Source of the DNA: Thermoplasmata archaeon
GTDB taxonomy: Archaea > Thermoplasmatota > Thermoplasmata > Lutacidiplasmatales > UBA184
Length of the DNA: 64,000 bases
Reading direction: 5' to 3'
Assembly (NCBI GenBank): GCA_035504395.1
Contig: DATJRX010000028.1
Coordinates: 20,717 to 84,716, forward strand
The notes beneath the pieces are model-generated. The model was given only the letters and a program-made list of their open reading frames with translations, was not told the DNA's origin and did no database searches. This document shows positions 5,094-47,782 of the stretch, piece after piece (the stretch's first letter is position 1; each line of letters starts with the position of its first letter). The position numbers were made by a program, and so were the translations under genes.

Positions 5094-7741
5094 GCGAGAC
5101 CCCCGAGGCGGCGCCGCCGGCCCCGGTCGACCGCGTGCACGACCGCCCGCTCGAGCGGGAGATGCACACGTCGTACATCGACTACGCCATGAGCGTCATC
5201 GTCGGGCGCGCCCTGCCCGACGGACGGAACGGCCTGAAGCCGGTCCAGCGCCGGATCCTCTGGTCGATGTGGGAGAGCGGGGCGACCCACGAACGCGCCT
5301 ACCGCAAGAGCGCCCGCACCGTCGGAGAGGTGCTCGGGAAGTACCACCCGCACGGGGACCTCGCCGTGTACGACGCGCTGGTCCGGATGGCCCAGCCGTT
5401 CAGCCTGCGCTATCCGCTGATCGACGGGCAGGGGAACTTCGGCTCCATCGACGGCGACGCGCCCGCCGCGATGCGGTACACCGAGGCCCGGCTCTCCGCG
5501 TTCGCCGAGGAGCTCCTCACGGACATCGAGAAGGAGACCGTCGAGTGGACGGACAACTTCGACGCGACCCTGCGCGAGCCGCTCGACGTCCCGTCGAAGG
5601 CGCCGAATCTGCTCCTGAACGGGTCCGCGGGGATCGCGGTCGGCATGGCGACCAACATGCCGCCCCACAACCTGGGCGAGGTCGTCGACGCGCTCCTCCT
5701 CCTGCTCGGAAGCCCCGACGCGGGGGTCGACGAGATCATGAAGGTCCTGCCGGGGCCGGACTTTCCCACCGGCGGCTACCTCGCGACGGACGGGATCCGC
5801 GAGGCGTACGCGACCGGCCGCGGCACGCTCCACCTCCGCGGGACGACCGAGATCCGGGAGCGGGACGGGCGCGACGAGATCGTGATCACGGACATCCCCT
5901 ACGAGGTGAACAAGACCGCGCTCCTCGAGCTCATCGCCGACCTCGTCAAGTCGAAGCGGATCGACGGGGTCACCGACCTGCGCGACGAGTCGGACCGGCA
6001 CGGGACGAGCGTCGTCCTCGAGCTTCGGCGGGACGCGCCCGCCGAGATCGTCCTGAACCGGCTCTACGAGCACACGCCGCTCGAGACCAGCTTCGGCGTG
6101 ATCAACCTCTGCCTGGTCGAGGGCCGGCCCCGCATCCTCCCGCTCAAGGACCTGCTCCAACTCCACCTCGACCACCGGCGGGTGATCCTCACCCGGCGGA
6201 CGACGTTCGACCTGAGGAAGACCGAGGAGCGGCTCCACCTCCTCGAGGGATTCCTCACCGCGATCGACCACATCGACGAGGTGATCCGGATCATCCGGCG
6301 GTCGCGCGACCCGGCCGCGGCCGAGACCGGGCTCATGGGGAAGTTCCTGCTCTCGAGCGAGCAGGCGAAGGCGATCCTCGACATGCGGCTGGCGCGCCTG
6401 ACCGCGCTCGAGCGCGAGTCGGTCGAGCAGGAGAAGGCGGAGAAGGAGGCCCTCGCGAAGTCGCTCCGCGAGATCCTCGGGGACCCGAAGAAGCTCGACC
6501 AGCTCATCGTCGACGAGCTCACGGACCTGAAGGCCCGCCTCGGCGACCCGCGCCGCACGACGATCGTGCCGGCGTTCACCGAGCGGACGCTCGAGGACCT
6601 CATCCCGGACACGGACGTGGTCGTCCTCGTCACGCGCGGCGGCTACATCAAGCGCCTGCCGCTCGAGCAGTACCGCCGCCAGCGCCGCGGCGGCCGCGGC
6701 CTCTCCCGCATCGAGACGAAGGAGGAGGACTACGTCATCCGGACCTTCGCGACCCGCACGCACGACAATGTCCTGTTCCTGACCAACCTGGGCCGCGTCT
6801 ACCAGCTGATGGCCTACGAGCTCCCCGAGGGGAGCCGACAGTCGAAGGGGAAGGCGATAATCAACCTCCTGCCGCGGCTCAAGGAGGGGGAGCGCGTCCA
6901 GACGCTCCTCCCGATCCACGACCTCGCCGCCGCGGGGTCGCTGTTCTTCGCCACCCGGCGGGGGCTCGTGAAGCGGACCACGCTCGACCAGTTCCAGAAC
7001 ATCCGCGTGAGCGGCATCCAGGCGATCCTCCTCGAGGACGGCGACGAGCTCATCGGGGTCGCCCATCTGACCGACGAGGCGACCGAGATCCTGCTCGCGA
7101 CGCGGGCCGGCCAGCTGGTCCGGTTCCCCGTGTCGGAGGTCCGCGCGATGGGGCGCTCGACCTACGGGGTGATCGGGGTCCGGCTCTCGGACGGGAAGGA
7201 CGACCAGGTCGTCGCGATGGCGCCGGTGAGCCCCCGCTACCCGACGCTCCTCTCGCTCACTTCGACCGGCTTCGGCAAGCGCAGCCCGACCGAGTCGTAC
7301 CGCCAGACCCGCCGCGGGGCGAAGGGGGTCCGGACGATCAAGACCGGGGGGCGGAACGGCGCGGTGGTGACGGTCCTCCCGACGACCGACCTCTCGGAGC
7401 TCCTCGTGACGACCAAGAACGGCATCACGATCCGCATGGCCGTGAAGGGGATCCGCGCCCAGGGCCGCGACACCCTCGGCGTCCGGGTGATCCGGCTCGA
7501 TGACGGGGACGAGGTGAAGGACGCGCTGATCCTCGAGGAGCGCGAGGACGGGAACGGCGGGGAGGCTCCCGGCGCCCCGACCGAGGCCGAGATCCCGACC
7601 CCCGACGACCTGCCCGAGGGCCCGGCGCCCGGCGACGAACCCCCGGACGACCCGCCCGACGACGACGAGGACGACGGGGACGATGACGGCCCCGGCCTCG
7701 ACGAGGAGGGCGATGCCCCGCCCCGGGACGAAGCCGCGTAA
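5090..7741 (+). CDS. gyrA: DNA gyrase subunit A
   Basis: 883 aa. Motifs are [29 protein letters not shown], the active-site region [10 protein letters not shown], and C-terminal beta-pinwheel repeats. It ends in an acidic [14 protein letters not shown] tail. ATGA overlap with the upstream gene at 5090-5093. Confidence 0.95.
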
Positions 7742-13521: not shown

Positions 13522-14413
13522 CGCGGAACCCTCCCGCCTCGAGCGCGGCCTTGCCGCGCCCGTTGAGGACCGCGACCTGGGCCATCGTGCGCTGGGCGCC
13601 CCGGGCCTCGCACCAGGCGAGCGCCGTGGCGACGAGCGCGGCCGCGTCCGCGGGCGCCACGCTCGCCGCGACCACGGGGGCCGAGAGGTTCGCCGCGTCC
13701 GTCGCGGGCGAGCGGGTCGCCTGGACGAACGCCTCCGGCCCGCGGCCGCGGTCGATCACCCACGCGGCCGTCTCGCTCGCGAGAGCCCGGTCGATCGCCC
13801 CGCCGGTCCGGAAGTACGCCTCGGTGACGGGGAGCACCTCCTCGACCTCGGGCGACGACGCTTGGCGGGCGATCTCGGTGAGAGGGCCGGCGTCCTTCTT
13901 GTTGAACGCCCGGAGCCCCGTCGGCGGGGTCGACGGCCGGGGGGTCCCCGCCGTATAGACCATGATCCGGTTCTCGCGGAGCGGTCGGTATCCGATGCGA
14001 TCGTAGAGGGCGCGGGCCGGGGCGTTCTTGTCCAGCACGTCGAGCGCGATGTACTTCCGCCCGGCGCGCTGGGCGGTGCCCCGGGCCTCCTCGAGCATCG
14101 CCCGGGCCAGGCCGCGGCGGCGGTACGCGGGGTCGACCGCGACGCTGCTCACGTACCCCGCCCGGGGCGGGAGCGTGACGAGCGTGGTCGCGACGACCTT
14201 CCCGTCCTCCTCGACCACGAGGAAGCGGAACACCCGCCGGCCGAAGAGCGCCATCAGCCCGAGGATGAGCCGAAAGTCCCACCGGAAGACCCGCGCGACG
14301 ACCTTGAGGAAGCCGTCGGGGCGGAACCCCATGATCGCCTGCTCCTCGGGAAAGTACTCGCTCAGGAAGGTGAAGAGCGCCGGGGCGTCCGACCTCCGCA
14401 CGTCCCGGATCAT
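13481..14413 (-). CDS. GNAT-family N-acetyltransferase (two GNAT-like halves)
   Basis: Internal ATG 14413 forms an ATGA overlap with the HEAT gene stop. The acetyl-CoA motif is VAVDPAYRRRGLARAMLEEA. The C-terminal half ends with a second GNAT-like segment, ...ALAWCEARGAQRTMAQVAVLNGRGKAALEAGGF. Confidence 0.75.
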   Translation of the reverse strand: MIRDVRRSDAPALFTFLSEYFPEEQAIMGFRPDGFLKVVARVFRWDFRLILGLMALFGRRVFRFLVVEEDGKVVATTLVTLPPRAGYVSSVAVDPAYRRRGLARAMLEEARGTAQRAGRKYIALDVLDKNAPARALYDRIGYRPLRENRIMVYTAGTPRPSTPPTGLRAFNKKDAGPLTEIARQASSPEVEEVLPVTEAYFRTGGAIDRALASETAAWVIDRGRGPEAFVQATRSPATDAANLSAPVVAASVAPADAAALVATALAWCEARGAQRTMAQVAVLNGRGKAALEAGGFRDAISVWTLYRTVA

Positions 14414-15900
14414 CCGTTCTCCTCGTCGTCGGTGGCCCCCGGGATCGCGCTCTCGAACAGGGCGCGCAGGGTCGGCGGGGTGCCGTCCGACCGCAGCTCG
14501 GGGAGGGGGAGCCGGGCGAGGCGGTCGAGCTCCTCCTCGCTCAGGCGCTCCCGCACGTCGAGGAGGGCCCGGTGGACGAACGGGTCGGACGTCCCGTGCG
14601 CGAGCCGGCCGAGGGCCTGCACCACCGAGTCGAACAGCCGGGTCTCGGCATCGGAGACGAGCGGGCTCGACTCCGCATCGGGGGGTCCGGCGATCGGGTC
14701 CTCGATCGGGCGGACCCCGTACAGGAGCCGGACGAGCTCCTCGCGGGCGCCGTCGTCCGAGAGCCGGCCGAGCGCCCAGATCGCCGCGAGTTTCACCTCG
14801 GCCGCGGGGTCCGCGAGCTCCTCGCGGATCCGCGGGGCGGCCTCGTTGAGACCCAGGCGGCCGATCGCGTAGATGGCGCCGCGGCGGGGCCAGGGGTGCT
14901 CGTCCCGCAGGAGCTCGAGCAGGACCGGGAGGTCCTCCGCGCCCCCGGCGTTGCCGAGCGCGATCGCCGCGGCGCCGCGCACCGACCAGGCCGGGTCGTT
15001 CGCGTGCACGAGGGCGGCCGTCCGTGCGGCCGGGACCGCCATCTCGCCGAGGGCGTGGAGGGCGCAGACGCGGACCCACGGCCGCTCGTGCTCGCAGGCC
15101 CCAACGAGGGCGGGGATCGCCTCCGCCGCGCCGATGCGGCCCAGCGCGACGAGCACGGACGGCTTCTCCCAGGTCTCGGGTGCGGCCACGCGCTCGAGCA
15201 ACATCGGGACGCTCTCGCGATCGCGGTGGCGGCCGAGGACCACGGCGGCCGCGGCCCGCACCCGCGGCGCGGGATCGCGGAGGAACGGACGCACGGTCCG
15301 GACGACCGACGGCTCGGTGCCGCGGCCGAGGCCGAGCACGGCCTCGCGGCGGACCCGGTCGACCGGATCGGTGAGCAGCTGACCGAGCACGGCGACGGCC
15401 TCGGGCGAGGGGATCGTGCCCAGGGCGCCGGCGACCGCCTGGCGGACCTCGGCGGACTCGTCGGCGACGTGTTCCGCCAGGGCCGGCACCGATGCGGGGT
15501 CGGCGAGCAGGCGGAGCGCCCCCGCCGCGCGGGCGCGCACGTGCGCGTCGGGGTCCTCGAGCGTGCGCTCGAGAGGCTCGCGGCTCTCGCGCCGGCCGAT
15601 CGCGCCCAGCGCCTCGGCGGCGCTGGCCCGGACCCCGACGTCCGGGTCGCTCAGCGCGGTCGCGAGCGTGCTGCTCGCGCGCGGATCCTTCAGGATGCCG
15701 AGCGCGATCGCGGCCGTCTGCCGGAGGCCGGCCGTCGGGTCGCTCAGCGCCACCAGGAGGGGCGTGAGGTCCTCGATGCGCCCGCGCGAGACGCTCGCGC
15801 GGATCGCGGCGGCCCGACGGGCCGGCGACGCCGGGGTCCGGGTCCGGGAGGTCCGACGCGGCCGGGCCGGCCGGCGCTTCGCCCGAGCGCGCACGCTCAC
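14410..15900 (-). CDS. HEAT-repeat (PBS-lyase-like) protein
   Basis: About 13 repeats of the form L..aL.D.d..VR..Aa.ALG.ig (for example DPDVGVRASAAEALGAIG, DPDAHVRARAAGALRLL, DESAEVRQAVAGALGTI). GTG start at 15900. The Arg-rich first ~35 aa may not be translated. Confidence 0.75.
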   Translation of the reverse strand: MSVRARAKRRPARPRRTSRTRTPASPARRAAAIRASVSRGRIEDLTPLLVALSDPTAGLRQTAAIALGILKDPRASSTLATALSDPDVGVRASAAEALGAIGRRESREPLERTLEDPDAHVRARAAGALRLLADPASVPALAEHVADESAEVRQAVAGALGTIPSPEAVAVLGQLLTDPVDRVRREAVLGLGRGTEPSVVRTVRPFLRDPAPRVRAAAAVVLGRHRDRESVPMLLERVAAPETWEKPSVLVALGRIGAAEAIPALVGACEHERPWVRVCALHALGEMAVPAARTAALVHANDPAWSVRGAAAIALGNAGGAEDLPVLLELLRDEHPWPRRGAIYAIGRLGLNEAAPRIREELADPAAEVKLAAIWALGRLSDDGAREELVRLLYGVRPIEDPIAGPPDAESSPLVSDAETRLFDSVVQALGRLAHGTSDPFVHRALLDVRERLSEEELDRLARLPLPELRSDGTPPTLRALFESAIPGATDDEENG

Positions 15901-16123
15901 GCGCGGTCGACGCGGGACGGGGCTAAGAGCCTGACGCGGAGCCGCCGGCGGCCCGGCGGAGCCGGTGCGACGGCGCGGGGATCCGCCGGGTACGCGCCAG
16001 GCGTCGACCCGCGTCGGGGTCGCCCGAGCTCCCGCCCCGCCGGCCGTCTCCCCGGGATCCCCGGGTCCCGTTCCGTCGGGTCCTCGGGCTGTTCGTGAGG
16101 GGCGGCGAGGGACCGGGATCGGA

Positions 16124-18424
16124 TCAGAACGACGTCTGCGCGAGGCTCTCGGGCGAACGGTACGGGGCCCGCTCCGGCGGCGGCGCGACCCCCCAGCGCG
16201 CGAGGAGCGCGTCGTGGTCGACCCCGAGCGGGGCGAGCAGCGTCTCGGCCGTCCGCGCGAGGAGCTCGAGGTAGGCGCCGGCGTCGTACCGCTCGTCCCC
16301 CCGCAGGAGCTCGGCGGCCCGGACCCGTTCGCGGAACGAGCGGCTGCGCCGGTCCAGGATCACGAAGCGGACCATCTCCCCGGCGACCCGGCCGACCCCG
16401 GCCGCGGCGAGCTGGCGGACGGCGGCGACCGAGTCGGTGAACGTGACGAAGTCGCCGGGCTCCTGGCCCAGGCGGTGCGTGAGGACGAGCTCGTCGACCG
16501 GCCACGCGCCCACCGCGACCCGCTCGGCGAACAGGTCGGCCCGCGCGAGCGCGCGCGGCAGGAGCGCGCGGACCCCGTCCGCGTCGCGCGCCCCGCGGAA
16601 CAGCGTCAGCACCTCGCCCTCGAAGCGCCGCAGGAGCGCCGGGGTGTCGTGGCGGCGCGAGCCGATCCCCCGGAGCTTGAACTCGCCGTGCTCGTAGAGC
16701 CCGTAGTACCGGTTCGGGACGCCGAGCCCGTGCGTGGTCGCGGGGAGGAACAGGATCCATCGGTACCGGCCCTCGTAGCCGAGCGGGAGGTCGTAGCGCT
16801 CGCTCATCGCCCGGGCGAACGCCTCGGGATCCGGCGGGCGGCCGGGGTCGATCGGCCGGAGCCAGAGCGAGTCGACGATCCCGTGGACGACCCGGTACCC
16901 CGCGGCCTCCGCGGTCGGGACGAGGTCGGCGAGGAGCGCGCGCGCGTAGGCGTTGATCGCCTCGTGGCACTCGATCCGCCCGAACCGCGCGTTGCGGTAC
17001 CCCTGGTAGCCGAACGCCGTGACGAGGATCCACTTCAGCATCTTCACGCGCCGCTTGAACGCGAGCGCCTCCTCGGGCGGGATCCCGGGCCGCTTCGCCG
17101 CCGCCTTGTAGGCGGCCCGGCGCGCGAGGAGCGGGGCGAGCGTCCGCGGGATGAGCCCGACGCGCTGGACGCAGGAGCGGTAGCCGAGCCCCGGCGTCCG
17201 GATCGGGCTGTGGGGGCAGCACCGGCACTCGAGCGTCTCCGCCGAGAGGTTCTTCCGGACCATGATCGACGGGTAGAGGCTCGCGAAGTCGAACTCGTCC
17301 AGGAGGTCGTGCACGCCGACCGGCGGCAGGAAGATCACCCCGCCACGGTCGGCGGCGACCAGATGGTCGCCGCGCCGGAACGACTCGGGCCGGTTCTTCT
17401 TCCACGGGACGTGCGCCCCGAGCGCGCGCGCGTGCGCCATCTCCATCGCGGTGAAGCAGGTCCCCGGCGACTGGCGGGCGACCGTGGTCATCGAGAGCCG
17501 CGAGAGCCGCGCCGCGTCGACGAGCCCGGGGATCTCCGCGTCCCCCAGGAGGAACGAGTTCTCCCGGTCGAGGTGGAAGCGCCCCGGCGGGTTGTACGCC
17601 GCGTCCCGGTGGCGGACGACGCCGTACGTCTCGTAGGTGAGCGCCGGCTTCGCCGGCCGCACGCCGGCCCGCTCCCGTCCGAGCTCGAAGGCGCCGGCGC
17701 CGAGCCCGATCGCGGCCGCGCGGCGGTAGAGCCACGGGAAGTCGAACCCGTCCCCCCCGCAGGTCAGGAGGACGTCCGGGTCCGTGCGCGCGAGCTCGTC
17801 GACCAGCGCGCGCAGGACGTCCTCCTCCGTCCCCTCGAGCGTCGCGTCCCCGATCCGGACCGCGCTGATGCGCCCGTCCGGCGGCGGGATCCGCCCCCGC
17901 CGCTCCCCGGCGACCGTCACCTCGAGCCGGGCGGTGCGGAGCGGCGGCGTCGGGTAGTGGATCGTCTCCGCCGGCTCGGTCGCTGTGAGGTCGGCGCCGC
18001 GGCCCGCGACGGGGGCGAACGGGTAGAGGCGGTGCGCGAGGTGGTAGAGCTGGGGCGGCGAGAGGTCGACGTCGTAGAACCGGAACCGCTCGAACCCGCC
18101 GATCCGGTCGATCTCACGGGCGAGCGCACGCCGCGCCGGGTTGCGGCGCGGGGTGACCGCGAGCACCCCGTGCGGCCGCCGGTCGTAGAGGCTCGGCGCG
18201 AGGACGCGGCGCTCGACCGAGGCGACCGTCGGGAGGTCCCGGAGCCGGCGCGCGAGGCCCGGGAGCTCGGTCGCGGGACCGTCGACGAGGAACGGCGGCC
18301 GGAACTCGACCGCGGTCCGCGAGACGCGGCCGGTCGTTCGCTCCTTCCGCCAGAGGACGACCGAGCGGCCGTCGTCGCTCTCGGTGATGTCGAGGAGCCA
18401 GCCGTCGGCGCTCCCGGCGTCCAC
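16124..18424 (-). CDS. polB: Family-B DNA polymerase, divergent (non-canonical Exo I, motif B and motif C)
   Basis: 766 aa with GTG start verified at 18424. The PolB N-terminal and exonuclease fold pattern includes WLLDITE...FRPPFLV, FYDVDL and GDGFDFPWLYRRA. Motif A is DFASLYPS. Motif B reads KWILVTAFGYQGY, motif C reads VVHGIVDS, and Exo I reads ARLEVTV. Confidence 0.85.
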   Translation of the reverse strand: MDAGSADGWLLDITESDDGRSVVLWRKERTTGRVSRTAVEFRPPFLVDGPATELPGLARRLRDLPTVASVERRVLAPSLYDRRPHGVLAVTPRRNPARRALAREIDRIGGFERFRFYDVDLSPPQLYHLAHRLYPFAPVAGRGADLTATEPAETIHYPTPPLRTARLEVTVAGERRGRIPPPDGRISAVRIGDATLEGTEEDVLRALVDELARTDPDVLLTCGGDGFDFPWLYRRAAAIGLGAGAFELGRERAGVRPAKPALTYETYGVVRHRDAAYNPPGRFHLDRENSFLLGDAEIPGLVDAARLSRLSMTTVARQSPGTCFTAMEMAHARALGAHVPWKKNRPESFRRGDHLVAADRGGVIFLPPVGVHDLLDEFDFASLYPSIMVRKNLSAETLECRCCPHSPIRTPGLGYRSCVQRVGLIPRTLAPLLARRAAYKAAAKRPGIPPEEALAFKRRVKMLKWILVTAFGYQGYRNARFGRIECHEAINAYARALLADLVPTAEAAGYRVVHGIVDSLWLRPIDPGRPPDPEAFARAMSERYDLPLGYEGRYRWILFLPATTHGLGVPNRYYGLYEHGEFKLRGIGSRRHDTPALLRRFEGEVLTLFRGARDADGVRALLPRALARADLFAERVAVGAWPVDELVLTHRLGQEPGDFVTFTDSVAAVRQLAAAGVGRVAGEMVRFVILDRRSRSFRERVRAAELLRGDERYDAGAYLELLARTAETLLAPLGVDHDALLARWGVAPPPERAPYRSPESLAQTSF

Positions 18425-18426
18425 GG

Positions 18427-18681
18427 TCAGCGCGCGGCCGCCCGGGACGGGGGCTCGGCGGGGAGCCGCCGGGCGAGGTCGAGGAGCACGCTGAGGAGGA
18501 TCGACTCGAGGAGATCCGGGCTCCCGACGTACGTCGCCTGGGCCGCGTAGCGGCGGGCCCCGGTGCGGAGCGTCTCGAACGCCGCGCGCTCCTCGGGGGT
18601 CGTGAGGAGCCGCGCGAACTCGTCCCAGCGCTTCATCCGTTCCTCGAGCGCCTGGCGGTACGTCGGGGCGGTGCGGCCCAT
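18427..18681 (-). CDS. Small helical protein between the RecA-like gene and polB
   Basis: 84 aa from ATG 18681, or 69 aa from ATG 18636, which makes an ATGA overlap with the upstream stop. The stop TGA 18427-18429 lies 2 nt before the polB GTG. No family recognised. Confidence 0.45.
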   Translation of the reverse strand: MGRTAPTYRQALEERMKRWDEFARLLTTPEERAAFETLRTGARRYAAQATYVGSPDLLESILLSVLLDLARRLPAEPPSRAAAR

Positions 18682-19520
18682 GCGATCACCTCCTCGGCGG
18701 CGGAGCCGCCGCCGAACTCCTCGATCCCGTGCTGGCCGGCGGGACGGGGGACGAGCGCGAGACGGGCGTCGTCCCTCAGCGCGCGGACCTTGAGCGTCCC
18801 CGGCGCGCGGACGAAGGAGAGGTAGTCGCACCAGCGCGGTCCCTCGTCGGCGAGGCCGGGGAACCGCTCGAGCCCGTCCGGCGCGAGCGTGACGAGCAGC
18901 GGGACGCGGACCGCGTCGGTGACGGTGCGCAGGGTCCGGGCGACGTGGCGCAGGAGCGCCGCGCGCTCGTCGTCGGGGATCTCGTCCGCGGCGAACAGCG
19001 CGGGGAGGTCGTGCGCGACCAGGAGCGTCGGCGGGTGGCGTCGCACCTCGGCGGCCCAGCCGTCCACGAGCGCGACCATCTGGTAGGCGGTGAACGCGCG
19101 GGCGAGGCGGATGCGGTGGAGCGTCTCGGTCGCGTCGACCCCGAGCGAGCGGCCGAGCTCGCCGACCCGGTACGGATGGAACCGGTTCGCCCCCTCGAGC
19201 AGCGAGACCTGCCCGCGGGCGCGCGCGCTCCCCGCGTAGAGGAGCTCCAGGATCGGCTCGACCGCGACGTGCGCGCCGGTCCACAGGGTCGCCTCGCCCG
19301 GGGCGAAGCGGCGCGCGAGCCACGGGAACAGCGCGGGCTCGGGCGGAAGGACCGGGCGGGCGCGGACGCGCGGTCGGGTCCGCGGCGCGAGCCGAAGGCG
19401 CGGAACCGGACCGTCCGGCGCGCCCGACGGCGCCGCCGGGCGCGAGGACGGTTCGAACGGCTCGGCCTCCCCGGGCAGGAGGAGCGGCTCGATCTCGAAC
19501 GGGTGGGCCATCGCGGGCAT
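18633..19520 (-). CDS. RecA-fold (RadB/KaiC-like) protein lacking a Walker A P-loop
   Basis: Starts at internal ATG 19520 (or 19511) of track ORF 18633-19631. The core VSLLEGANRFHPYRVGELGRSLGVDATETLHRIRLARAFTAYQMVALVD...PTLLVAHDLPALF follows the RadA/RadB pattern with a Walker-B-like LLVAHD. No GxxxxGK[ST] is present. The N-terminal ~70 aa are Pro-rich. Confidence 0.55.
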   Translation of the reverse strand: MPAMAHPFEIEPLLLPGEAEPFEPSSRPAAPSGAPDGPVPRLRLAPRTRPRVRARPVLPPEPALFPWLARRFAPGEATLWTGAHVAVEPILELLYAGSARARGQVSLLEGANRFHPYRVGELGRSLGVDATETLHRIRLARAFTAYQMVALVDGWAAEVRRHPPTLLVAHDLPALFAADEIPDDERAALLRHVARTLRTVTDAVRVPLLVTLAPDGLERFPGLADEGPRWCDYLSFVRAPGTLKVRALRDDARLALVPRPAGQHGIEEFGGGSAAEEVIAWAAPPRRTARRSRNG

Positions 19521-19548
19521 CGGCCCCCCGTTCAGGGGCTGGACCGCT

Positions 19549-20289
19549 CTAAAGCGACCGTTCGGGGCGGGTTGAAACGGGCTCGGGAACGAGGCGTTCC
19601 CCTCGGTCTCGAACGCCGACCGGCGATGCATCGGCGGCCCGCTCGAGGTAGGCGAGGACCTCGTTCGCGTGCCGGTCGGGCGGGAACACCGGGTAGAACA
19701 CCTTCTCGATCCGTCCCCGGTCGGCGACGAACGTCAGGCGTCGCACGAGGGTTCGCCCCTGCAGCGGGAAGGAGGAGGTTCTCCCTTCGAAGGCGACCGT
19801 CGGGTTCCGGAGCGATGCGACGAACGTCGGGAGCCGGAGCGCCCGGACGAGCTCGAACCGCGAGTCATTGAGCAGCTCGTACGGCAGGTGCAACCGCTCC
19901 GCCAGTTCGACCTGTTCGGCCCAGCCCTGGGCGGGGTCCTCCTGACCTTGACCGCTCACCCCGAACACCTCGCATCCCGTGTCGCGGATCGCAGCGTACG
20001 CGTCGCGGAAGCCGCAGTTCTCGAGGGTACAGCCCCGGGCCCCCGGGATCTCGCTCCACTCGCCGGGGATCGGGATCCCCGGGGCGACGGTCGCGGGGTA
20101 CAGGAAGAACACCGTCCGGTGCTCCGCGGCCCCGGCGACGTCGACGACCCGTCCGCGGGTCGACCGAAGCCGGACCGACGGGACCGGGGCCCCGGTCAGG
20201 TGGGTCGCCGCACCGTCGTCGGTCGGCGCCGGCAGGCCTCCCGGAAGGACGAAGAGGTTGACGTCGGTCGGGATTTCGTCCCAGCCCAT
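19549..20289 (-). CDS. Peroxiredoxin, Bcp/AhpC-TSA family, with N- and C-terminal extensions
   Basis: ATG verified at 20289. PGARGCTLENCGFRD is the Bcp-type CxxxxC peroxidatic/resolving motif. The thioredoxin-fold context FGVSGQ...LPYELLND follows. Confidence 0.7.
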   Translation of the reverse strand: MGWDEIPTDVNLFVLPGGLPAPTDDGAATHLTGAPVPSVRLRSTRGRVVDVAGAAEHRTVFFLYPATVAPGIPIPGEWSEIPGARGCTLENCGFRDAYAAIRDTGCEVFGVSGQGQEDPAQGWAEQVELAERLHLPYELLNDSRFELVRALRLPTFVASLRNPTVAFEGRTSSFPLQGRTLVRRLTFVADRGRIEKVFYPVFPPDRHANEVLAYLERAADASPVGVRDRGERLVPEPVSTRPERSL

Positions 20290-20304
20290 CCCGTCGTCCG
20301 CTCC

Positions 20305-21591
20305 CTAGAAGATGTAGGCGTGGCCGGCCGAGGTATCGGCCCCGACGCTCTCATAGCCGGCGCCGACCACGATGCACGCGGCGTCGGCCGCCACCGCGCT
20401 CCCGAACCCCCCGTTGGTCTGAAAGTTCGGGCTCGTGAGGGTGGTCAGGATCGCACCGGTCGTGGCGTTGAACACGGTGGCGTTGCCGGCGCCGGGGGCA
20501 CCGAACGCAGCGTCGTTCGGGGCTCCCACGACGACGTCGAGGCCGCTCACGGCGACACTGTACCCGAATTCTCCGCCGTACTGGGGGCTGGGGTTGATCA
20601 GCTGAGCCGTGAGGATGCCGGTGCTACTGTTGTAGAGGTAGGCGTTCCCGGCGTCGAACATGCCCGACACGTTCTCGGACCGGGCACCGACCACCAATAC
20701 CGTCCCTCCGACCGCGAGGGACACCCCGTAGGCCCCGTAGCCCGACTGGGCGTTCGGGCTCGCGAGAACGTACGTGGTCCGGCCGGCCGGCGCGCTCGTC
20801 GCCTTCAGCACCAGGTAGACGTGACCGCCGCTCCCCTCGCCCGGGGCGCCGATGTAGGCGGTCGTGCCGCTGAGGGCGACCGAGTAGCCGAAGACCCCGC
20901 CCGCGACGGGATTCGACGTGGTCAGCGACGCGATGGAGCTGCAGCTCGTGGAGAAGATGTACGCATTGCCCCCCTCGTCCAATCCGCCGGAGGTCTCGCC
21001 CGGTGCGCCGACGAGCACGTCCGTGCCGCTGATCGCCACGGACCAGCCGAACGCGCCGCCGATCGAGGTCGAGGTTCCGGCGACGGGAGCGGGGTCGACG
21101 AGCGTGCACTTGTAGGTGACCGTGGAGCCGCTGATCGTGTACACGTAGGCGTTCCCCGCGTTCAGGACCGCCCCGGCGGTCTCGTTGGGCGCTCCCACCA
21201 CGAGCGTGGTCCCGCTCATCGCGACCGAGTTGCCGAACCAGCCGTTGAGCTTGGGATGCGGGCTCGCGATCGTGGCGACGAGATGGCCGGTCCCCGAATT
21301 GTAGACGTACACGTTACCGCCCTGAACGGACCCGGCATCGGTCTCGAACGGCGCGCCGACGGCCGCCTTCCCGTTGGCGACGGCCGAGCTCGTGCCGAAC
21401 CCCCCGTTCGTTTGGGGCGAGCCGCTCGAGAGCTCGATCGCGGCGTGCAACACGATCGGCGCGGGCGGCGCCACCACGAGGGGGGTGACCGATCCCGCCG
21501 CCGCGGCCAATCCCACGAGCAGTCCGAGTACGGCCGCGGCTCCGAGTACGGACACCAGCGCGATGCGTGCCTTGCGGGCGATAGCTCTCAT
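20305..21591 (-). CDS. Secreted or anchored FG-GAP repeat (beta-propeller) protein
   Basis: N-terminal hydrophobic anchor ARIALVSVLGAAAVLGLLVGLAAAAG. About seven repeats follow, of the form FG.SVA.SG..vvVGAP.e...g.aGnAYvy. This stretch is visibly less GC-rich than its neighbours. Confidence 0.75.
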   Translation of the reverse strand: MRAIARKARIALVSVLGAAAVLGLLVGLAAAAGSVTPLVVAPPAPIVLHAAIELSSGSPQTNGGFGTSSAVANGKAAVGAPFETDAGSVQGGNVYVYNSGTGHLVATIASPHPKLNGWFGNSVAMSGTTLVVGAPNETAGAVLNAGNAYVYTISGSTVTYKCTLVDPAPVAGTSTSIGGAFGWSVAISGTDVLVGAPGETSGGLDEGGNAYIFSTSCSSIASLTTSNPVAGGVFGYSVALSGTTAYIGAPGEGSGGHVYLVLKATSAPAGRTTYVLASPNAQSGYGAYGVSLAVGGTVLVVGARSENVSGMFDAGNAYLYNSSTGILTAQLINPSPQYGGEFGYSVAVSGLDVVVGAPNDAAFGAPGAGNATVFNATTGAILTTLTSPNFQTNGGFGSAVAADAACIVVGAGYESVGADTSAGHAYIF

Positions 21592-21720
21592 TGTCGTTCG
21601 CTTCCCGGGAACCGAGGTCCCCCGGCGCGGACCGGGGTCTAGGTAGATAAACCACCGACGCGACGCCTCGCCCGCGCGGCGGGCGGACCGTGCGCCGACG
21701 GCCGGGTCCGGCGGCCCGGT

Positions 21721-22503
21721 TCAGCGCGGATCTCCGAGCGACTCGAGCCGCGACGCCCCCGGCGGGGGAGGCAGTCCGAGGGCCTCCGCGAGGGTCTGCC
21801 CGTTCGTCGCCGCGTCGCCCCGGAAATGGTTGTTGAAGAAGCCGTAGACGGTAGTCGCATTCTCGGCGAGGGTACGGACCCGGGGGACCCACGCGGCGAG
21901 CTCCGCGGGGGAGTAGGTGTAGTCGTACCACGTCGGGTTCCCGTGCCCGTGCCAGCGCACGTAGGCGAACGGTGCCGTCACGCGGAGGTCGATGGGGAGG
22001 TGCGGCCCGTCGAGCACGACGTAGGCGAGACGGAACTCCTCGAGGAGCGCATACGACTCGGGGACGAGCCAGGACCGTTCGCGGAACTCCACGGCGACCC
22101 TAAGATCGTCCGGGAGCGAGGCGTAGAACGCGCGGACGGTCGGCGCGTCGAACGGCAGCGACGGCGGGAGCTGCAGCAACGCGGCCGCGAACTTGCCGGC
22201 GTCGCGGAGCGGCTTCAAGACCGCGAGGAACCGCGCGAGCTCTTCGTCGGCCCCGACGAGCCGGAGGGCGTGCGTGATCGTCTGCGGGAACTTCGCGGCG
22301 AACGTGAATCCCGGCGGCGTGCGACGCGCCCACGACGCCGCGACGGACGGCGCGGGCAGGCGGTAGAACGTGGAGTTGACCTCGACGATCGGGAACAGGC
22401 CGGCGTAGTAGCGCAGCCGGTCCGCGACGTCGTGGGGCGGATAGACGCGGCCGACCCACTCCGCGTAGTCCCATCCGCTGGTGCCGAGCAGGATCGAGCC
22501 CAC
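21721..22503 (-). CDS. DUF72 (YecE-like) family protein
   Basis: GTG start at 22503. LLGTSGWDYAEWVGRVYP...VEVNSTFYRLP...FAAKFPQTITH...VEFRERSW...YVRWHG is the characteristic DUF72 signature string. Confidence 0.8.
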   Translation of the reverse strand: MGSILLGTSGWDYAEWVGRVYPPHDVADRLRYYAGLFPIVEVNSTFYRLPAPSVAASWARRTPPGFTFAAKFPQTITHALRLVGADEELARFLAVLKPLRDAGKFAAALLQLPPSLPFDAPTVRAFYASLPDDLRVAVEFRERSWLVPESYALLEEFRLAYVVLDGPHLPIDLRVTAPFAYVRWHGHGNPTWYDYTYSPAELAAWVPRVRTLAENATTVYGFFNNHFRGDAATNGQTLAEALGLPPPPGASRLESLGDPR

Positions 22504-22575
22504 GGACGCCCCGTCTCGGGGAGGCCGCCCGGTGCGATAACCGCTCTTCCGGCGGCGGAACGCGGGCCGGCGCCG

Positions 22576-23934
22576 CTAGGGACCTTCGGGACCCTCGGGC
22601 ACCGCCCGGCTCGGCCCTCCGCCCGAGCGGACCGGCACCGGCCCGGCGGGCGGCGTCGGCCCGGACGGCGCCCAGAACGTGAGGAGCCCGTAGATCGAGG
22701 TCGCGAGGAGCACCGCCGTGCCGAGCGCGCCGAAGGCGACGGTGCGCAGGCGCCGCCGGGGCTCGATCCCCTTCGCCACGGTCCCGAGGAACGTGCCCGT
22801 ACCGGCGAGGCCGAAGACCAGCTGGAGGTCGCGCACCGGTGCGACCCAGTCGGAGCGGACGTGCATTCCCGGCGCGGGGGTCGCGACGCCGTAGAGCGCG
22901 TGCGCGATCGGATCGAGCACGGAGTGCGTCACCAGGCCGACCTCCATCGGTCCGCGGGCGATCGCGAGCGCGACCACGACGATCGGCAGCGCGTAGGTCC
23001 CGCCGAGCTCGAGGCGATAGAACAGCCCGGGATGGTCCGGTCCCGCGCCCCGCAGGTACCGACCGAGCCGGATCCAGCTCGACCGGGACCAGCGGACGTT
23101 CTGCCGGACGAACGCCCCGACGCTCCCCTTCGGGGAGGTCACGACCCGGATGTCGTACGCCTTCACCGTCGCGAGCCCGAGCGACAGCACGTGGTCCGTC
23201 AGCAGCCAGTCGTCGCCGAGCGACGAGGCGCGGCCGGCGACCGAGAGGCGCTGGAACTCCTCGGAGAGGATGTACGAACGGACCTGCTCGGTCCGGAACA
23301 TCATGCACGCGCCGTCGAGGTAGAGCACGTTCCCCCGGGAGGACATCGCCCGCAGGACGACCTCGCGGGCCCGCTCGACGAACTCCGCGGCGGCGGCGAC
23401 CCCGGTGCCGGTATCGCGTACCGAAAGGTTCGCCCCGACCCCGCCCACCCCCGGGGAGAAGTAGGCGGCGAGCCCGCTCGCCGCGCCCGCCGGGAGCACG
23501 GTGTCGGCGTCCACGAACAGCACGTACGGGGTCGCGACGCGCCGGATCCCCTCGGCGAGCGCCGCCTTCTTCCCGCCGGGTTCGGACCTCCGAACGAACG
23601 CTCCGCCGGCGCCCTCGACGATCGCCCGGTAGGGCGCGTCGACCCCGTCCCCGACGACGATGAACCGGGCGCCCTGCGTCGCCACCGAGCGGACGCACTC
23701 CGCGAACAGGGCCGGAGGCTCGTGGTGGACCGGGACCACGATCGTCACCTGGGCCGGATCCACCGGAGCGCCCCGCTGGGCGCGCGCTCGGCGCCGGGAG
23801 AGGAGGACGTTCGTCAGCAGGTAGCAGGTCGGAAGGAACGCGATCGCGAGGAGGACGAGCGGAACCAGCCAGACCCCCAACGCGATCCTTCCCGCGCGAG
23901 ACCGGCCGGCCGGGCTCAAATCGTTGTGTCCCAC
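22576..23934 (-). CDS. Membrane-embedded family-2 glycosyltransferase (processive, QxxRW type)
   Basis: GTG start at 23934. It has an N-terminal TM helix and the GT-A core VTIVVPVHHEP...LFVDADTVLP...GACMMFR...QNVRWSRS, followed by C-terminal TM helices. Confidence 0.8.
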   Translation of the reverse strand: MGHNDLSPAGRSRAGRIALGVWLVPLVLLAIAFLPTCYLLTNVLLSRRRARAQRGAPVDPAQVTIVVPVHHEPPALFAECVRSVATQGARFIVVGDGVDAPYRAIVEGAGGAFVRRSEPGGKKAALAEGIRRVATPYVLFVDADTVLPAGAASGLAAYFSPGVGGVGANLSVRDTGTGVAAAAEFVERAREVVLRAMSSRGNVLYLDGACMMFRTEQVRSYILSEEFQRLSVAGRASSLGDDWLLTDHVLSLGLATVKAYDIRVVTSPKGSVGAFVRQNVRWSRSSWIRLGRYLRGAGPDHPGLFYRLELGGTYALPIVVVALAIARGPMEVGLVTHSVLDPIAHALYGVATPAPGMHVRSDWVAPVRDLQLVFGLAGTGTFLGTVAKGIEPRRRLRTVAFGALGTAVLLATSIYGLLTFWAPSGPTPPAGPVPVRSGGGPSRAVPEGPEGP

Positions 23935-23963
23935 CGCGCGCCCGCGCAGGCCCTCGTGTGCCT

Positions 23964-23978
23964 GAAAAATCTAATAGG
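23964..23978 (+). promoter_or_regulatory. TATA-like box upstream of the ferredoxin gene
   Basis: gaaaaatctaatagg is an isolated AT-rich element about 35-45 nt upstream of GTG 24012. It lies inside the longer track ORF that begins at GTG 23958, which argues for the shorter CDS. Confidence 0.4.
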
Positions 23979-24011
23979 ACGGACCGCCCCCCCGCGGGGG
24001 AGGCAGCGCCG

Positions 24012-25496: not shown

Positions 25497-25511
25497 CGCG
25501 GAGGTACTTCG

Positions 25512-28500
25512 ATGGGAGTGGTCGGGAGGGTCAGCGGTCCGGTCGTCATCGCCGAAGGTCTCGAGGGCGCGAAGATGTTCGACGTCGTTCGCGTCGGAGC
25601 CCAGGGGCTCGTCGGCGAGATCATCCGTCTCGTCGGGGGGAACGCCACGGTCCAGGTGTACGAGGACACGACCGGCATCCGACCGGGCGACCCGGTCGAG
25701 AACACCGGCCAGGCGCTCTCGGTCGAGCTCGGCCCGGGGCTCCTCAAGTCGATCTACGATGGCGTCCAGCGCCCGCTCGACGTGATCCAGAAGAGCGTGG
25801 GCGACTTCATCACGCGCGGGTTCGTCGTGCCCCCGCTCGACGAGAAGGCGAAGTGGGAGTTCACCGCGACCGCGAAGGCCGGGGACGCGGTCAGCGCCGG
25901 GGCGGTCCTCGGGACGGTCCAGGAGACGCCGCTCATCCTCCACAAGATCCTCGTCCCACCCGGTGTCGAGGGCACGATCGGCAAGATCGCGAGCGGCACC
26001 TACACGATCCGCGACCCGATCGGATCGGTCAAGACCGCGAACGGCTCCGAGACGCTCTACCTGAGCCACAAGTGGGTCGTGCGCGTGCCGCGCCCGGTCA
26101 AGGAGAAGCTCGCCCCGGGCATCCCGCTCATCACCGGACAGCGGGTGGTGGACTCGTTCTTCCCCGTCGCGAAGGGCGGCACGGCCTGCGTGCCCGGACC
26201 GTTCGGCTCCGGGAAGTGCGTCGGCCGTGACACTCCGGTCCTCCTGGGCGACGGCACGATCGCCCCCATCGACGAGATCTTCGAGCGGTGCCGGTCCCTC
26301 GGCGACCTTCGGGTCGACGGGTCCGACGAGTGGCTCACGCTCCGCCAGCCCCTCGAGCTCCACTCGCTGGTCGGCGATCGCATCGTGAAGAGCCGGACGA
26401 CGACCCTCTACCACGGGAAGAGCGACTCGCTCGTCCGGATCCGGACGCGGAGCGGCCGCACCGTCCGCGTTACGCCGGTGCACCGGCTGTTCACCCTCGG
26501 GCCGGACGGCGCGCTCCGGGAGACGATGGCCCGGGACCTTCGGCCGGGCGAGTACGTCGCGTCCGTGCGGACGCTGCCGTCCCCCCGGGGGGAGACGCCC
26601 CTTTCGTTCCACCTCGACCTTCTCCCGGGCCGGGAGAGGCCGATCCGGGTTCCCGAACGCATGTCGCCCCTCCTCGCGGAGTTCCTCGGCCTGTTCGCCG
26701 CCGGGGGACGCCTTCGAGGGAAGGCCACGGTCGAGTTCTCCGCCGACGAGCCGGATCGGATCCCGCAGTTTCTCTCCCTCGCGTCCGCCCTCTTTGGGGT
26801 CGCGGGGAGCGTCGAGCGGCGATCCGCCCGGGCCCCGAGCGGGCGCATCCACAGCCGCCTCCTGGTGGACCTTCTGGACCAGATCGGTACCGGCCGGCGC
26901 GCGGAGGAGAAGCGCATCCCACCGGCGGTCCTCAGCTCGGGGAATGAGGTTCTCGGCGCCTTCCTCCGGGGCTACTACCTCGGCGGGGGAGGGATCGTGG
27001 GCGGGGAGATCGAGCTCGGCGCCGCGAGCCAGCGGCTCCAGATCGAACTCTCGTACGCGCTCGCGCGATTCGGCATCACGTCCTCCCTCGGTCGCCGCGT
27101 CGTGGACGCGAACGCGCCCTACCGGCTCCTCGTGCGCGGCCCGCTGAACCTGACCCGCCTGACCGGGGCCCTTCGTTCGGTCGCGCCCACGATCGCGCAG
27201 GACCGGCAGCCCATCGACGCGCCGCGGATGCCCTACCCTATGACCGACGTCCGGCCCCGGTCGCCGGGGCCCGTGGAAGGCTGGTACCGGGCCCCGACCG
27301 GCCCCTCCGCCGGGACGCCCGCGGGCTTCGAGGTCTCGGGCCCGATCGGCCATCCAGAGGGGATGGGCACGACCCCGTTCCTCCCCTCCCTGGCGGCGCC
27401 GCCGATGGACGATCCGCTCCAGACCCAGGATCCGACGGCGGCCCGTCGCGCCGTGCTCCTCGAGACCGTCTTCGGCGACGAGATCACGGAGGTCCGCGTC
27501 GAGCCCGACGGCCCGTTCGACGTCTACGACTTCGCCGTTCCGGACCACGGGCTCAACTTCGTCGGTGGGTTCGGAGGACTCCTCCTCCACAACACGGTCA
27601 TCCAGCAGCAGCTGGCGAAGTGGGCCGACTCGGACATCGTGGTGTACGTCGGCTGCGGCGAGCGCGGGAACGAGATGACGGAGATGCTCACCCTGTTCCC
27701 GACCCTCGTCGATCCGAAGAGCAAGCGCCCGCTGATGGAGCGCACCGTCATGATCGCCAACACATCGAACATGCCGGTCGCCGCCCGCGAGGCGAGCGTC
27801 TACACCGGCATCACGATCGCCGAGTACTACCGCGACATGGGCTACGACGTGGCCCTGATGGCCGACTCGACCAGCCGGTGGGCGGAGGCGATGCGCGAGA
27901 TCTCGGGCCGCCTCGAGGAGATGCCGGGCGAGGAAGGGTACCCGGCGTACCTCGGCCGCCGGATCGCCGAGTTCTACGAGCGCGCGGGCCGCGTGGTCGT
28001 GCTCGCGCCCGAGCCGCGCAACGGGTCGGTCACGGTCGTCGGCGCGGTGTCGCCGGCGGGCGGGGACACCTCCGAGCCCGTCAGCCAGAACACGCTGCGC
28101 GTGGCGCGCGTCTTCTGGGCGCTCGACGCATCGCTGGCGTCGCGCCGCCACTTCCCGTCGATCAACTGGCTGCAAAGCTACTCGCTCTACGTCAACGATC
28201 TCTCGCCGTGGTTCGCCCAGAACCTCTCGAAGGAGTTCTTCCCGCTCCGCCAGAAGGCGCTCGAAGTGCTCCAGAAGGAGGCCGAGCTCCAGGAGATCGT
28301 CCAGCTGGTCGGCGTCGACGCGCTCCCCGAGCGCGAGAAGGCGATCCTCGACGTGGCCCGCATGATCCGGGAGGACTACCTCCAGCAGAGCGCGTACGAC
28401 GACGTCGACACCTACTCCTCGATCCAGAAGCAGTACCGGATGCTCCGGGCGATCCTCCACTTCGGCGACCAGGAGCAGGAGGCGATCGGCAAGGGCGCGA

Positions 28501-28649
28501 CCGTCGCGCAGCTGCAGAAGCTGCCCGTGCGGACCAAGCTGTCCCGGATGAAGTGGATCCCCGAAGCCGAGCTTACGGCGCAGTTCGACGCGCTCGAGCT
28601 CGAGATGGGGCAGACCGTGGGCCAGCTGGCCGCGGCCGGAGGCGCGTGA
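25512..28649 (+). CDS. atpA: A-type ATP synthase catalytic subunit A, interrupted by an intein
   Basis: 1045 aa. The extein halves join as ...VPGPFGSGK|[30 protein letters not shown]..., giving a 586-aa A subunit. The Walker A motif is split by the intein. Confidence 0.95.
26217..27593 (+). mobile_element. Intein (459 aa) in the atpA P-loop, with a degenerate LAGLIDADG endonuclease domain
   Basis: It starts with Cys (TGC 26217-26219; [13 protein letters not shown], block A). Block B is RVTPVHRLF. It ends ...[12 protein letters not shown] (AAC 27591-27593) and is followed by Thr +1. The LAGLIDADG-like motifs are [12 protein letters not shown] (26673-26708) and [14 protein letters not shown] (26952-26993). 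Confidence 0.85.
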
Positions 28650-40814: not shown

Positions 40815-40824
40815 CGTTAATACT
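40815..40824 (+). promoter_or_regulatory. Proximal TATA-like box upstream of nrdJ
   Basis: cgttaatact lies about 40 nt upstream of ATG 40863. It has the same cgTTAA core as the boxes at 3213 and 25126. Confidence 0.4.
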
Positions 40825-40862
40825 CCGGCACACCCCCGTCGCCCCCTCCTGGAGAACCATCC

Positions 40863-47686: not shown

Positions 47687-47782
47687 CGGTGGATCGCCGC
47701 CGGAGGAGGAGGCGCCGGGGCACTTAGGCTCGGCGTCCCACGCCCCAACGGCTAAGGCGGGAATCCCCCGTGCCCTGGCGCG

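Follow-up and report, generated by a model that had tools for sequence, protein, structure and literature searches.

A probable iRadA-PPB2-PolB2 ('PolB2 mutasome') operon in a high-GC Thermoplasmata archaeon

Organization of the locus

The stretch of DNA analyzed here (hereafter the window) comprises 64,000 nucleotides of a contig from a Thermoplasmata archaeon (GenBank assembly GCA_035504395.1, contig DATJRX010000028.1), with a GC content of 69-78% across its whole length. The subject of this work is a cassette of three genes, packed head to tail on the minus strand as the original prediction had read them from the DNA, that encodes a RecA-like protein, a small helical protein, and a family B DNA polymerase (Table 1). 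The cassette very probably represents the standard iRadA-PPB2-PolB2 operon, also called the 'PolB2 mutasome'. The operon of PolB2, arCOG07300, and an inactivated RadA was described in 2013-2014 (Makarova 2014, PMC4104785), and the PolB2-PPB2-iRadA 'mutasome' was analyzed in depth in 2025 (Timinskas, Timinskas and Venclovas, PMC11791011), in a study whose supplement holds Thermoplasmata operons of type '1a (iRadA-PPB2-PolB2)' with SRAP/DUF72 upstream, the motif C HGIVDSLWV, and a PCNA motif on iRadA. The cassette is thus already known, being a further instance of a catalogued operon, and the original remark that no archaeal cassette of such composition had been described has to be withdrawn.

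All three open reading frames (ORFs) have a GC content at third codon positions (GC3) of 0.92-0.94, a bias typical of genuine genes in the window. The GTG start codon of PolB2 (18424) lies 2 nt past the stop codon of PPB2 (18427-18429), a spacing that had been noted before and is read directly from the sequence, as is the out-of-frame overlap of 49 nt between iRadA and PPB2 (18633-18681, minus strand). This overlap is conserved in the clade, being also present in the relatives L001 (7822-7870) and L003 (7831-7879), and it is explained by internal initiation, since a strong ribosome-binding site (GGAGGTGAT) precedes the PPB2 ATG at 18681 by 7 nt. With the ribosome-binding site and start of PPB2 inside the iRadA frame, and the PolB2 start directly behind the PPB2 stop, the coupled layout indicates that the three genes are translationally linked. 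Since iRadA-PPB2 fusions are known from elsewhere and PPB2 is in the -1 frame with respect to iRadA, a fusion by programmed -1 frameshifting over the overlap was considered, but rejected, as no X_XXY_YYZ slippery heptamer was seen on by-eye reading.

The most likely start of iRadA is Met 19520, which lies 28 nt past the stop (19549) of the upstream peroxiredoxin-like gene. A longer form starting at 19631 (332 aa) was discarded: it would run 83 nt into the upstream gene, and it is also disfavored by the homologues (440 in total), for which the 120 gene calls listed are mostly 289-300 aa long and cover ~99% of the 295-aa form. The plus-strand ORFs 15965-18550 and 18729-19871 were absent from the ORFs passing the codon-position GC filter and were treated as high-GC antisense artefacts.

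The polymerase

The polymerase is assigned to the PolB2/Dpo2 group by its full-length match and by family-wide signature motifs. Two NCBIfam models named 'type B DNA-directed DNA polymerase' match it over the full length (NF004418 with 386 bits and E = 3.5e-115, NF004416 with 338 bits and E = 1e-100), the other archaeal PolB models of that collection reach at most 115 bits, and Pfam DNA_pol_B matches with E = 1.5e-15. An exhaustive HMMER search of 1.84 billion cluster representatives returned 3166 relatives, the best 150 of which are 29-53% identical to the query (one at 81%) and score 310-555 bits. The query and 113 of these 150 were aligned (114 sequences) to obtain the family columns cited below, and motif positions were taken from HMMER alignment to solved PolB structures. 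Homology to known proteins is far beyond chance for this polymerase, as it is for the RecA-like protein.

Motif A is intact and the second Asp of motif C is retained, as originally claimed (D379 in 114/114 sequences, D518 in 113/114), with the first Asp of the DxD in motif C replaced by Ile. The deviant motifs B (KWILVTAFG) and C (HGIVDS) held up both in the alignment to solved PolBs and in the family columns, namely K464 (112/114), W465 (106/114), F471 (113/114), and G472 (113/114) for motif B, and H514 (110/114), I/L516 (103/114), and D518 for motif C. For Exo I, the loss of the catalytic DxE was correctly seen, but the register proposed at the time (RLEVT) was one residue off, the aligned stretch being LEVTV. 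Here Asp is replaced by E168 and Glu by T170, both in columns that are unconserved across the 114 sequences, and the Pfam exo-domain match stays below threshold (20.9 bits vs. a 23-bit cutoff). By their sequence, these 'non-canonical' motifs are the defining signature of the PolB2 group, for which the mutation of YxDTD to HxxxD and the deletion or radical variation of the Exo motifs are the published hallmark (PMC8764526).

The possibility that the enzyme is a canonical replicative PolB3, with odd motifs arising from misalignment, is close to nil. Its 766 aa are a PolB3-like length and its best solved-structure matches are PolBs of Thermococcales and Pyrobaculum, but the PolB3/PolB1 structures reach only ~119 bits against the 310-555 bits of PolB2-type relatives, and it is precisely the alignments to those structures that put HGIVDS on YGDTDS, KWILVTAFG on motif B, and LEVTV on FDIEV. 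DxE, NSxYG, and DTDS are all altered there, and the signature residues are family-wide across the 114 PolB2 sequences.

A second alternative, in line with the view held in 2008-2014, is that the polymerase is catalytically dead and that the trio forms a non-enzymatic structural or regulatory complex (e.g., at stalled forks or in origin use). In its favor, motif C lacks its first Asp, motif B its NSxYG, and the exonuclease site its carboxylates, inactivation together with a link to Orc genes was proposed by Makarova 2014 (PMC4104785), and an orc1/cdc6 gene adjoins the Haloarcula operon. We nevertheless consider this explanation quite improbable, as Sulfolobus Dpo2 with the same HxxxD change incorporates nucleotides about as well as the replicase Dpo1 (PMC8764526), while Asp379, Asp518, and Lys464 are invariant or nearly so across the 114 sequences, which argues for selection on catalysis.

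In addition to the catalytic motifs, the PolB2 enzyme has an FxxA/G element followed by the D(K/R) motif (D359 in 114/114, R/K360 in 112/114, G361 in 114/114). The family consensus at the FRRG position is F-K-[TS]-A, and the relative L001 has FRRA. An invariant D(K/R) motif in the loop before motif A, preceded by a region that mimics the RadA/Rad51 oligomerisation motif, has been described for PolB2 (PMC11791011), and from the models of the same study the FxxG/DRGG element is predicted to act as the iRadA-binding beta-alpha motif and to contact the PPB2 arm.

A candidate PCNA motif at the C-terminus of PolB2 (…SLAQTSF) was rejected, the last ~25 residues being unconserved even in relatives that are 70-72% identical. 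Several long PolB2 representatives (P0245, P0246, P0265, P0266, P0290, P0293, P0305, and P0320; ~1240-1310 aa) match the query in two parts that are split at query residue 470-472, within motif B (KWILVTAF/G), which suggests intein insertions in this motif. The PolB2 call of L001 (8076-10439 on a 1.8-Mb contig) departs from its relatives after ~residue 680 and ends in a low-complexity Ser/Arg-rich tail, suggesting a frameshift or a faulty assembly of that record.

The RecA-like protein

The RecA-like protein is iRadA (arCOG07763 / arCOG04294 / arCOG08101), a catalytically inactive RadA/Rad51 homologue. It passes the Pfam Rad51 model (E = 7e-6, 25.9 bits vs. a 22-bit cutoff), and a profile of 38 iRadA homologues matches RadA structures at 6e-9. 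The fold check suggested in the original prediction agreed: with the AlphaFold2 model (pLDDT 77.8, core above 90) as the query, the best Foldseek matches in the PDB were Rad51, DMC1, and RadA (E ~1e-11, probability 1.00, target-normalised TM <=0.68). At the P-loop position this RadA-type core reads GAHVAVEP.

Among the 38 homologues, G82 and P89 of this degenerate Walker A site are invariant and E88 is nearly so, and in the model the site lies between strand 77-82 and helix 84-100. The P-loop region of iRadA did not align to RadA in the search with the 38-homologue profile, and the Walker A correspondence was drawn from the position in the fold and a by-eye alignment, not from residue-level structural superposition; at the level of single residues, GAHVAVEP was matched by eye to the P-loop of P. 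furiosus RadA. The Walker B assignment had to be revised, since the 'Walker-B-like hhhhD' of the original prediction was shifted. The profile alignment puts the invariant His170 at the Walker B Asp position of RadA, with Asp171 directly after it.

The N-terminal HhH domain of RadA is replaced in iRadA by a clade-specific low-complexity extension of ~57 residues, with a motif pattern that is conserved across the 38 homologues. No HhH match was found in iRadA with Pfam, and residues 1-33 are helix-free in the model with a pLDDT <50, which rises to ~76-79 at residues 41-60. The iRadA ORFs of Methanomassiliicoccales (~240-280 aa from stop to stop) are too short to hold such an extension.

Towards the other end of the protein, a PIP-box-like motif (Table 1) has Q263, G265, and G270 invariant and F269 nearly so within the iRadA clade of the window. 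The pattern Qxx[LIMV]xx[FYW] is found near the C-terminus in 40/75 iRadA matches from other loci, and in most Methanomassiliicoccales a PIP-like motif (NQTTLDEF…) lies within ~4 residues of the iRadA C-terminus. A location of PCNA-binding motifs on iRadA instead of PolB2 has been published (PMC11791011), and their likely counterparts in Thermoplasmata and Methanomassiliicoccales, again on iRadA and not on the polymerase, fit the published idea of a 'shuttling clamp motif'. The conserved iRadA tail EEVIAW…RRSRxG is accounted for by the gene overlap, EEV coinciding with the ribosome-binding site of PPB2 and the rest with its MGRT arm, so that the tail looks to be conserved mainly through this arm.

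The small subunit

The small protein is assigned by its sequence to PPB2 (arCOG07300). Its 242 homologues, most of them 84 aa long and up to 98% identical, are all annotated as PF26485 (DUF8156), a label that is the precomputed annotation of the homologues, and the Pfam and NCBIfam search with the 84-aa protein itself gave no match. The AlphaFold2 model consists of three helices (8-25, 29-48, and 55-72) and a free N-terminal arm, and Foldseek of the monomer model against the PDB returned nothing with E<1. The N-terminus (MGRTAPTYR) holds the MGRT arm with Arg3 and Arg9; residues G2, R3, T4, P6, T7, and Y8 are invariant in 28 PPB2 homologues, and [MVLI]GR[TS] is present in 61/76 PPB2 matches at other loci. 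PPB2 (formerly arCOG07300) has been described as a helical protein of ~85-90 aa that consists of three helices and a free N-terminal arm, the conserved arm carrying 'MGRT' and the third and ninth residues being Arg (PMC11791011).

Because GGAGGTGAT lies just upstream and the MGRT arm is conserved in homologues, PPB2 starts at 18681 and not at 18636. Of the 69-84 aa helical protein originally proposed, the 84-aa form therefore stands, as a three-helix protein, while the alternative ATG at 18636 is dropped.

A tandem PPB2 pair between iRadA and PolB2, with MGRT in the first copy only, was seen in the Nitrososphaerota loci L051, L055, L061, L073, and L074, and a PPB2 duplication matching these loci has already been published (PMC11791011).

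Conservation of the gene order

Linkage was scanned in one genome per GTDB species using a 47-sequence PolB2 alignment, which found at least 585 relatives, and 80 PolB2-anchored loci were kept, in which PPB2 and iRadA were located by iterated hidden Markov models (HMMs). The order iRadA-PPB2-PolB2 on one strand was found in 65/80 of these loci, all from other genomes, and 8 of the remaining 15 have lost their upstream flank at a contig end. The conserved neighbourhood that the original prediction had called for in related genomes is therefore present. Archaeal loci span Thermoplasmata, Methanomassiliicoccales, Bathyarchaeia, Nitrososphaerota, Hadarchaeota, and Halobacteriota, and bacterial ones belong to Nitrospirota, Chloroflexota, Bacteroidota, and Deltaproteobacteria; both this taxonomic spread and the gene order agree with the published distribution (PMC11791011).

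The closest relatives are Thermoplasmata metagenome-assembled genomes (MAGs) with 70-82% identity, in which the genes run DUF72-iRadA-PPB2-PolB2-HEAT-GNAT-unknown-M29 peptidase and lie next to the A-type ATPase operon. This synteny bears on a third alternative, namely that the cassette is part of a mobile element (a casposon, or a plasmid- or virus-type protein-primed PolB) and not a chromosomal repair module. Haloarchaeal copies are often located on plasmids or megaplasmids (110 PLSDB records match), but relatives preserve the block from DUF72 to PolB2-HEAT-GNAT-M29 peptidase next to the ATPase operon, on contigs 0.28 to 1.8 Mb long, the cassette of the window is surrounded by housekeeping genes (for A-type ATPase, GyrA, ribonucleotide reductase, PolD, and PolX), the GC content of the cassette is the same as that of its flanks, and no Cas1, integrase, or terminal-protein genes were seen in the window ORFs scanned (terminal repeats were not searched for). 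A mobile origin of the cassette is accordingly a very slim chance.

DUF72 directly abuts iRadA upstream in the closest relatives, and it is found within 6 kb of polB2 in 26/83 loci, including Bathyarchaeia and two bacterial loci; enrichment of DUF72 near polB2 has been published (PMC11791011). In the window, DUF72 and the cassette share a strand but are only loosely associated, with two genes inserted between DUF72 and iRadA. The inserted FG-GAP-repeat gene was found in 0/83 loci, and the AhpC/TSA-like gene only in L009 among the 83.

Three features make this operon mildly distinctive: iRadA is extended at its N-terminus in a clade-specific manner, its overlap with PPB2 is conserved, and DUF72 is ancestrally contiguous with it. 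It is conceivable, but rather unlikely, that the operon of this clade is a slightly elaborated variant characterized by the ~57-residue extension, the 49-nt overlap, and DUF72 as a possible fourth component. The extension could offer an additional docking site, with RPA or PolD as examples of partners, or it could target in cis the groove used for RadA-type oligomerisation. The overlap resembles a stage midway between unfused genes and the iRadA-PPB2 fusions that have been published, with a possible role in setting the stoichiometry of the subunits. DUF72, a UVDE-like TIM-barrel that is ancestrally contiguous with iRadA, could be a fourth component coupling lesion incision to extension.

Surroundings of the operon

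The further genes placed in the window are given in Table 1, among them PolD and PolX, whose presence in the same window had been correctly recorded by the original prediction. A GC-rich non-coding spacer of 223 nt (15901-16123) separates the PolB2 stop from the HEAT-repeat gene, for which neither an Rfam match nor a terminator-like site was found; in the relatives L001 and L003 the HEAT gene begins at most ~8 nt from the PolB2 stop. The A-type ATP synthase subunit A (25497-28649, plus strand) carries an intein with a LAGLIDADG homing-endonuclease domain and is 1050 aa long in the window vs. 587 aa in L001 and L003.

The Rfam scan of 14000-24000 gave no RNA families, and a scan for bacterial-type promoters and terminators over 15700-22800 gave none above shuffled expectation, archaeal promoters being outside the model of the tool. 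Three inter-gene stretches were inspected over the interval from DUF72 to the HEAT gene, and the sole obvious patch resembling an archaeal promoter was a TATA-like, AT-rich element (TTTATCTA, 21644-21651, minus strand), which precedes the ATG of the FG-GAP gene by ~55 nt within a gap of 129 nt. The cassette transcript may read through from this element or come from an unrecognised internal promoter.

Table 1. Position of the cassette genes, their motifs, and other features in the 64,000-nt window
Feature	Position	Strand	Description
PolB2 ORF	16124-18424	-	GTG start, 766 aa
PolB2 motif C	16868-16885	-	HGIVDS, residues 514-519; HxxxD signature; aligns with YGDTDS
PolB2 motif B	17009-17035	-	KWILVTAFG, residues 464-472; PolB2-type K-W-x-L-V-x-x-F-G, not KxxxNSxYG
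PolB2 motif A	17267-17290	-	DFASLYPS, residues 379-386; aligns with DFSSMYPN of solved PolB; D379 in 114/114
PolB2 FxxG/DRGG element	17339-17380	-	F349-R-R-G352 ... D359-R360-G-G; FxxA/G element, then invariant D(K/R) motif
PolB2 Exo I remnant	17912-17926	-	LEVTV, residues 167-171; aligns with FDIEV (PDB 5mdn)
PPB2 ORF	18427-18681	-	ATG start, 84 aa
Shine-Dalgarno of PPB2	18685-18693	-	GGAGGTGAT; inside iRadA codons E-E-V-I, read from sequence
iRadA	18633-19520	-	295 aa from Met at 19520; longest ORF 18633-19631, 332 aa
iRadA PIP-box-like motif	18714-18734	-	Q263-H-G-I-E-E-F269; putative PCNA-interacting site
iRadA degenerate Walker A position	19254-19277	-	G82-A-H-V-A-V-E88-P89; stands for GxxxxGK[ST]
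iRadA N-terminal extension	19350-19520	-	Residues 1-57; acidic Pro-rich FEIEPLLLPGEAEPFEP, then Arg-rich RLRLAPRTRPRVRARP
AhpC/TSA-like (peroxiredoxin-like) gene	19549-20289	-	Inserted between DUF72 and iRadA
FG-GAP-repeat gene	20305-21591	-	Inserted between DUF72 and iRadA
DUF72 gene	21721-22503	-	Pfam DUF72, E = 1.3e-66; loosely associated neighbour
Gyrase subunit A	5030-7741	+	
Class II (B12-dependent) ribonucleotide reductase	40821-43661	+	
PolX-family polymerase	47756-49447	+	
PolD large subunit DP2	61635-63998	-	Cut off by window end

Proposed mechanism

With Asp379 and Asp518 kept and the Exo carboxylates lost, PolB2 is predicted to be an active polymerase without proofreading. If it behaves like its homologue Sulfolobus Dpo2, its role in translesion synthesis (TLS) would be to extend primer ends that are mismatched or paired with a lesion, and it would account for damage-induced mutagenesis. 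Sulfolobus Dpo2 is active, has no detectable exonuclease, and inserts poorly opposite lesions, yet extends mismatches and lesions efficiently (PMC8764526); it is also damage-induced (PMC7390963). The functional reading of the original prediction, a mutasome-like module in which a degenerate RecA-family protein and a small adaptor accompany a non-replicative, proofreading-deficient PolB related to the PolB2/Dpo2 of Sulfolobales, appears essentially correct.

The predicted complex consists of one PolB2, one iRadA, and a PPB2 trimer. In this assembly iRadA would be a Rad51-fold scaffold, predicted to be unable to bind or hydrolyse ATP, that docks on the FxxG/DRGG loop of PolB2 in the manner of RadA-RadA subunit docking, while the MGRT arm of one PPB2 subunit is modelled to insert between PolB2 and iRadA, near DNA. 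In the lineage of the window, QHGIEEF of iRadA most likely tethers the complex to PCNA. A PolB2:iRadA:PPB2(3) heteropentamer was obtained in AlphaFold-Multimer and AlphaFold3 models of 40 operons, in which PolB2 contacts iRadA by way of an FxxA-like motif and one of the PPB2 arms is inserted close to the active site (PMC11791011).

Several points weigh against identifying the cassette with a working mutasome of this kind. The placement of the polymerase in PolB2 was made from profile scores and signature motifs, and enzymatic activity, assembly of the complex, binding to PCNA, and induction by damage are carried over from the biochemistry of Sulfolobus and from in silico models in the literature. 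The PIP-like motif of the window is located 26 residues from the iRadA C-terminus and not at its very end. The neighbours scanned in the window included neither orc1/cdc6 nor SRAP, so that nothing within it points to damage regulation, and the gap between iRadA and the upstream peroxiredoxin-like gene is only 28 nt.

With this identification, a Thermoplasmata example of the operon is now cleanly annotated, its three products being labelled 'hypothetical protein' or only 'Rad51' in those public sources that give them a name. It also illustrates that the PolB2 mutasome and its functional analogy can be recovered from raw sequence alone. As the biochemistry of PolB2 has so far been limited to Sulfolobales, a full-length, euryarchaeal-type enzyme such as this one could be a useful target for reconstitution.

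Comparison with known systems

The operon of Thermoplasmata archaeon M9B2D (PNX53385-PNX53387, in the type 1a list) shares gene order and class with the window. Type 1a operons of Thermoplasmata have DUF72 upstream and HGIVDSLWV (IVD), and the PCNA-binding motif of iRadA reads QSHLEAFG there, where the window has QHGIEEFG. Compared with them, the clade of the window has the ~57-residue, acidic and then basic, N-terminal extension of iRadA and a C-terminal iRadA tail that overlaps PPB2 by 49 nt, while in the window itself DUF72 is two inserted genes away from iRadA and no SRAP gene was seen.

The Dpo2 enzymes of Sulfolobus (Saccharolobus) islandicus and S. solfataricus have the D(K/R) motif, the loss of Exo, the three-gene association, and the predicted 1:1:3 complex in common with the window, and their HxxxD motif is IID instead of IVD. 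Among PolB2 enzymes Sulfolobus Dpo2 is the smallest, and its Exo domain has decayed strongly, whereas the enzyme described here is full-length and has lost only the catalytic residues; the Sulfolobus enzyme has been characterised experimentally and is damage-inducible.

On pNG600 of Haloarcula marismortui, iRadA, PPB2 (MGRTNPTYR), and PolB2 (DRGG, KWILVACFG, HGIVDS) are located on one strand, as in the window, and this match ties the proteins of the window to the haloarchaeal operons (arCOG07763 + arCOG07300 + PolB2 + arORC2) of Makarova 2014 (PMC4104785). Not seen in the window are the plasmid location of the haloarchaeal copy, the additional gene of 130 aa that separates its PPB2 from PolB2, and the orc1/cdc6 next to it.

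A likeness to bacterial mutasomes had been drawn in the original prediction, and this analogy is right. In the middle protein of 84 aa, no ImuB-like Y-family domain was found with Pfam. ImuA-ImuB-DnaE2 is a damage-tolerance cassette that likewise combines a degenerate RecA-like protein with an error-prone polymerase, but its polymerase (DnaE2) belongs to the C family, and where the window has a small helical protein it uses as its adaptor ImuB, an inactive polymerase of the Y family. We know of no homology between it and the cassette of the window beyond the RecA fold. The comparison is an analogy only, the polymerase here being of family B and a Y-family ImuB-like protein being absent.

By analogy, the closer published parallel is Escherichia coli Pol V (UmuD'2C-RecA-ATP), in which a TLS polymerase is likewise joined to a RecA-family partner via an oligomerisation-like motif (PMC11791011). 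In both systems a small oligomeric subunit inserts an N-terminal arm (predicted for PPB2) and a sliding clamp is used (by the window's complex, most likely). Pol V differs in that its polymerase belongs to the Y family, in that its RecA is an active recombinase with ATP and not a dedicated inactive paralogue, and in that UmuD' is unrelated to PPB2 and forms a dimer vs. a trimer. Eukaryotic Pol zeta (Rev3-Rev7 plus accessory subunits), which has other accessory subunits and no RecA-family partner, resembles PolB2 as a multisubunit B-family TLS 'extender' with an inactive exonuclease.

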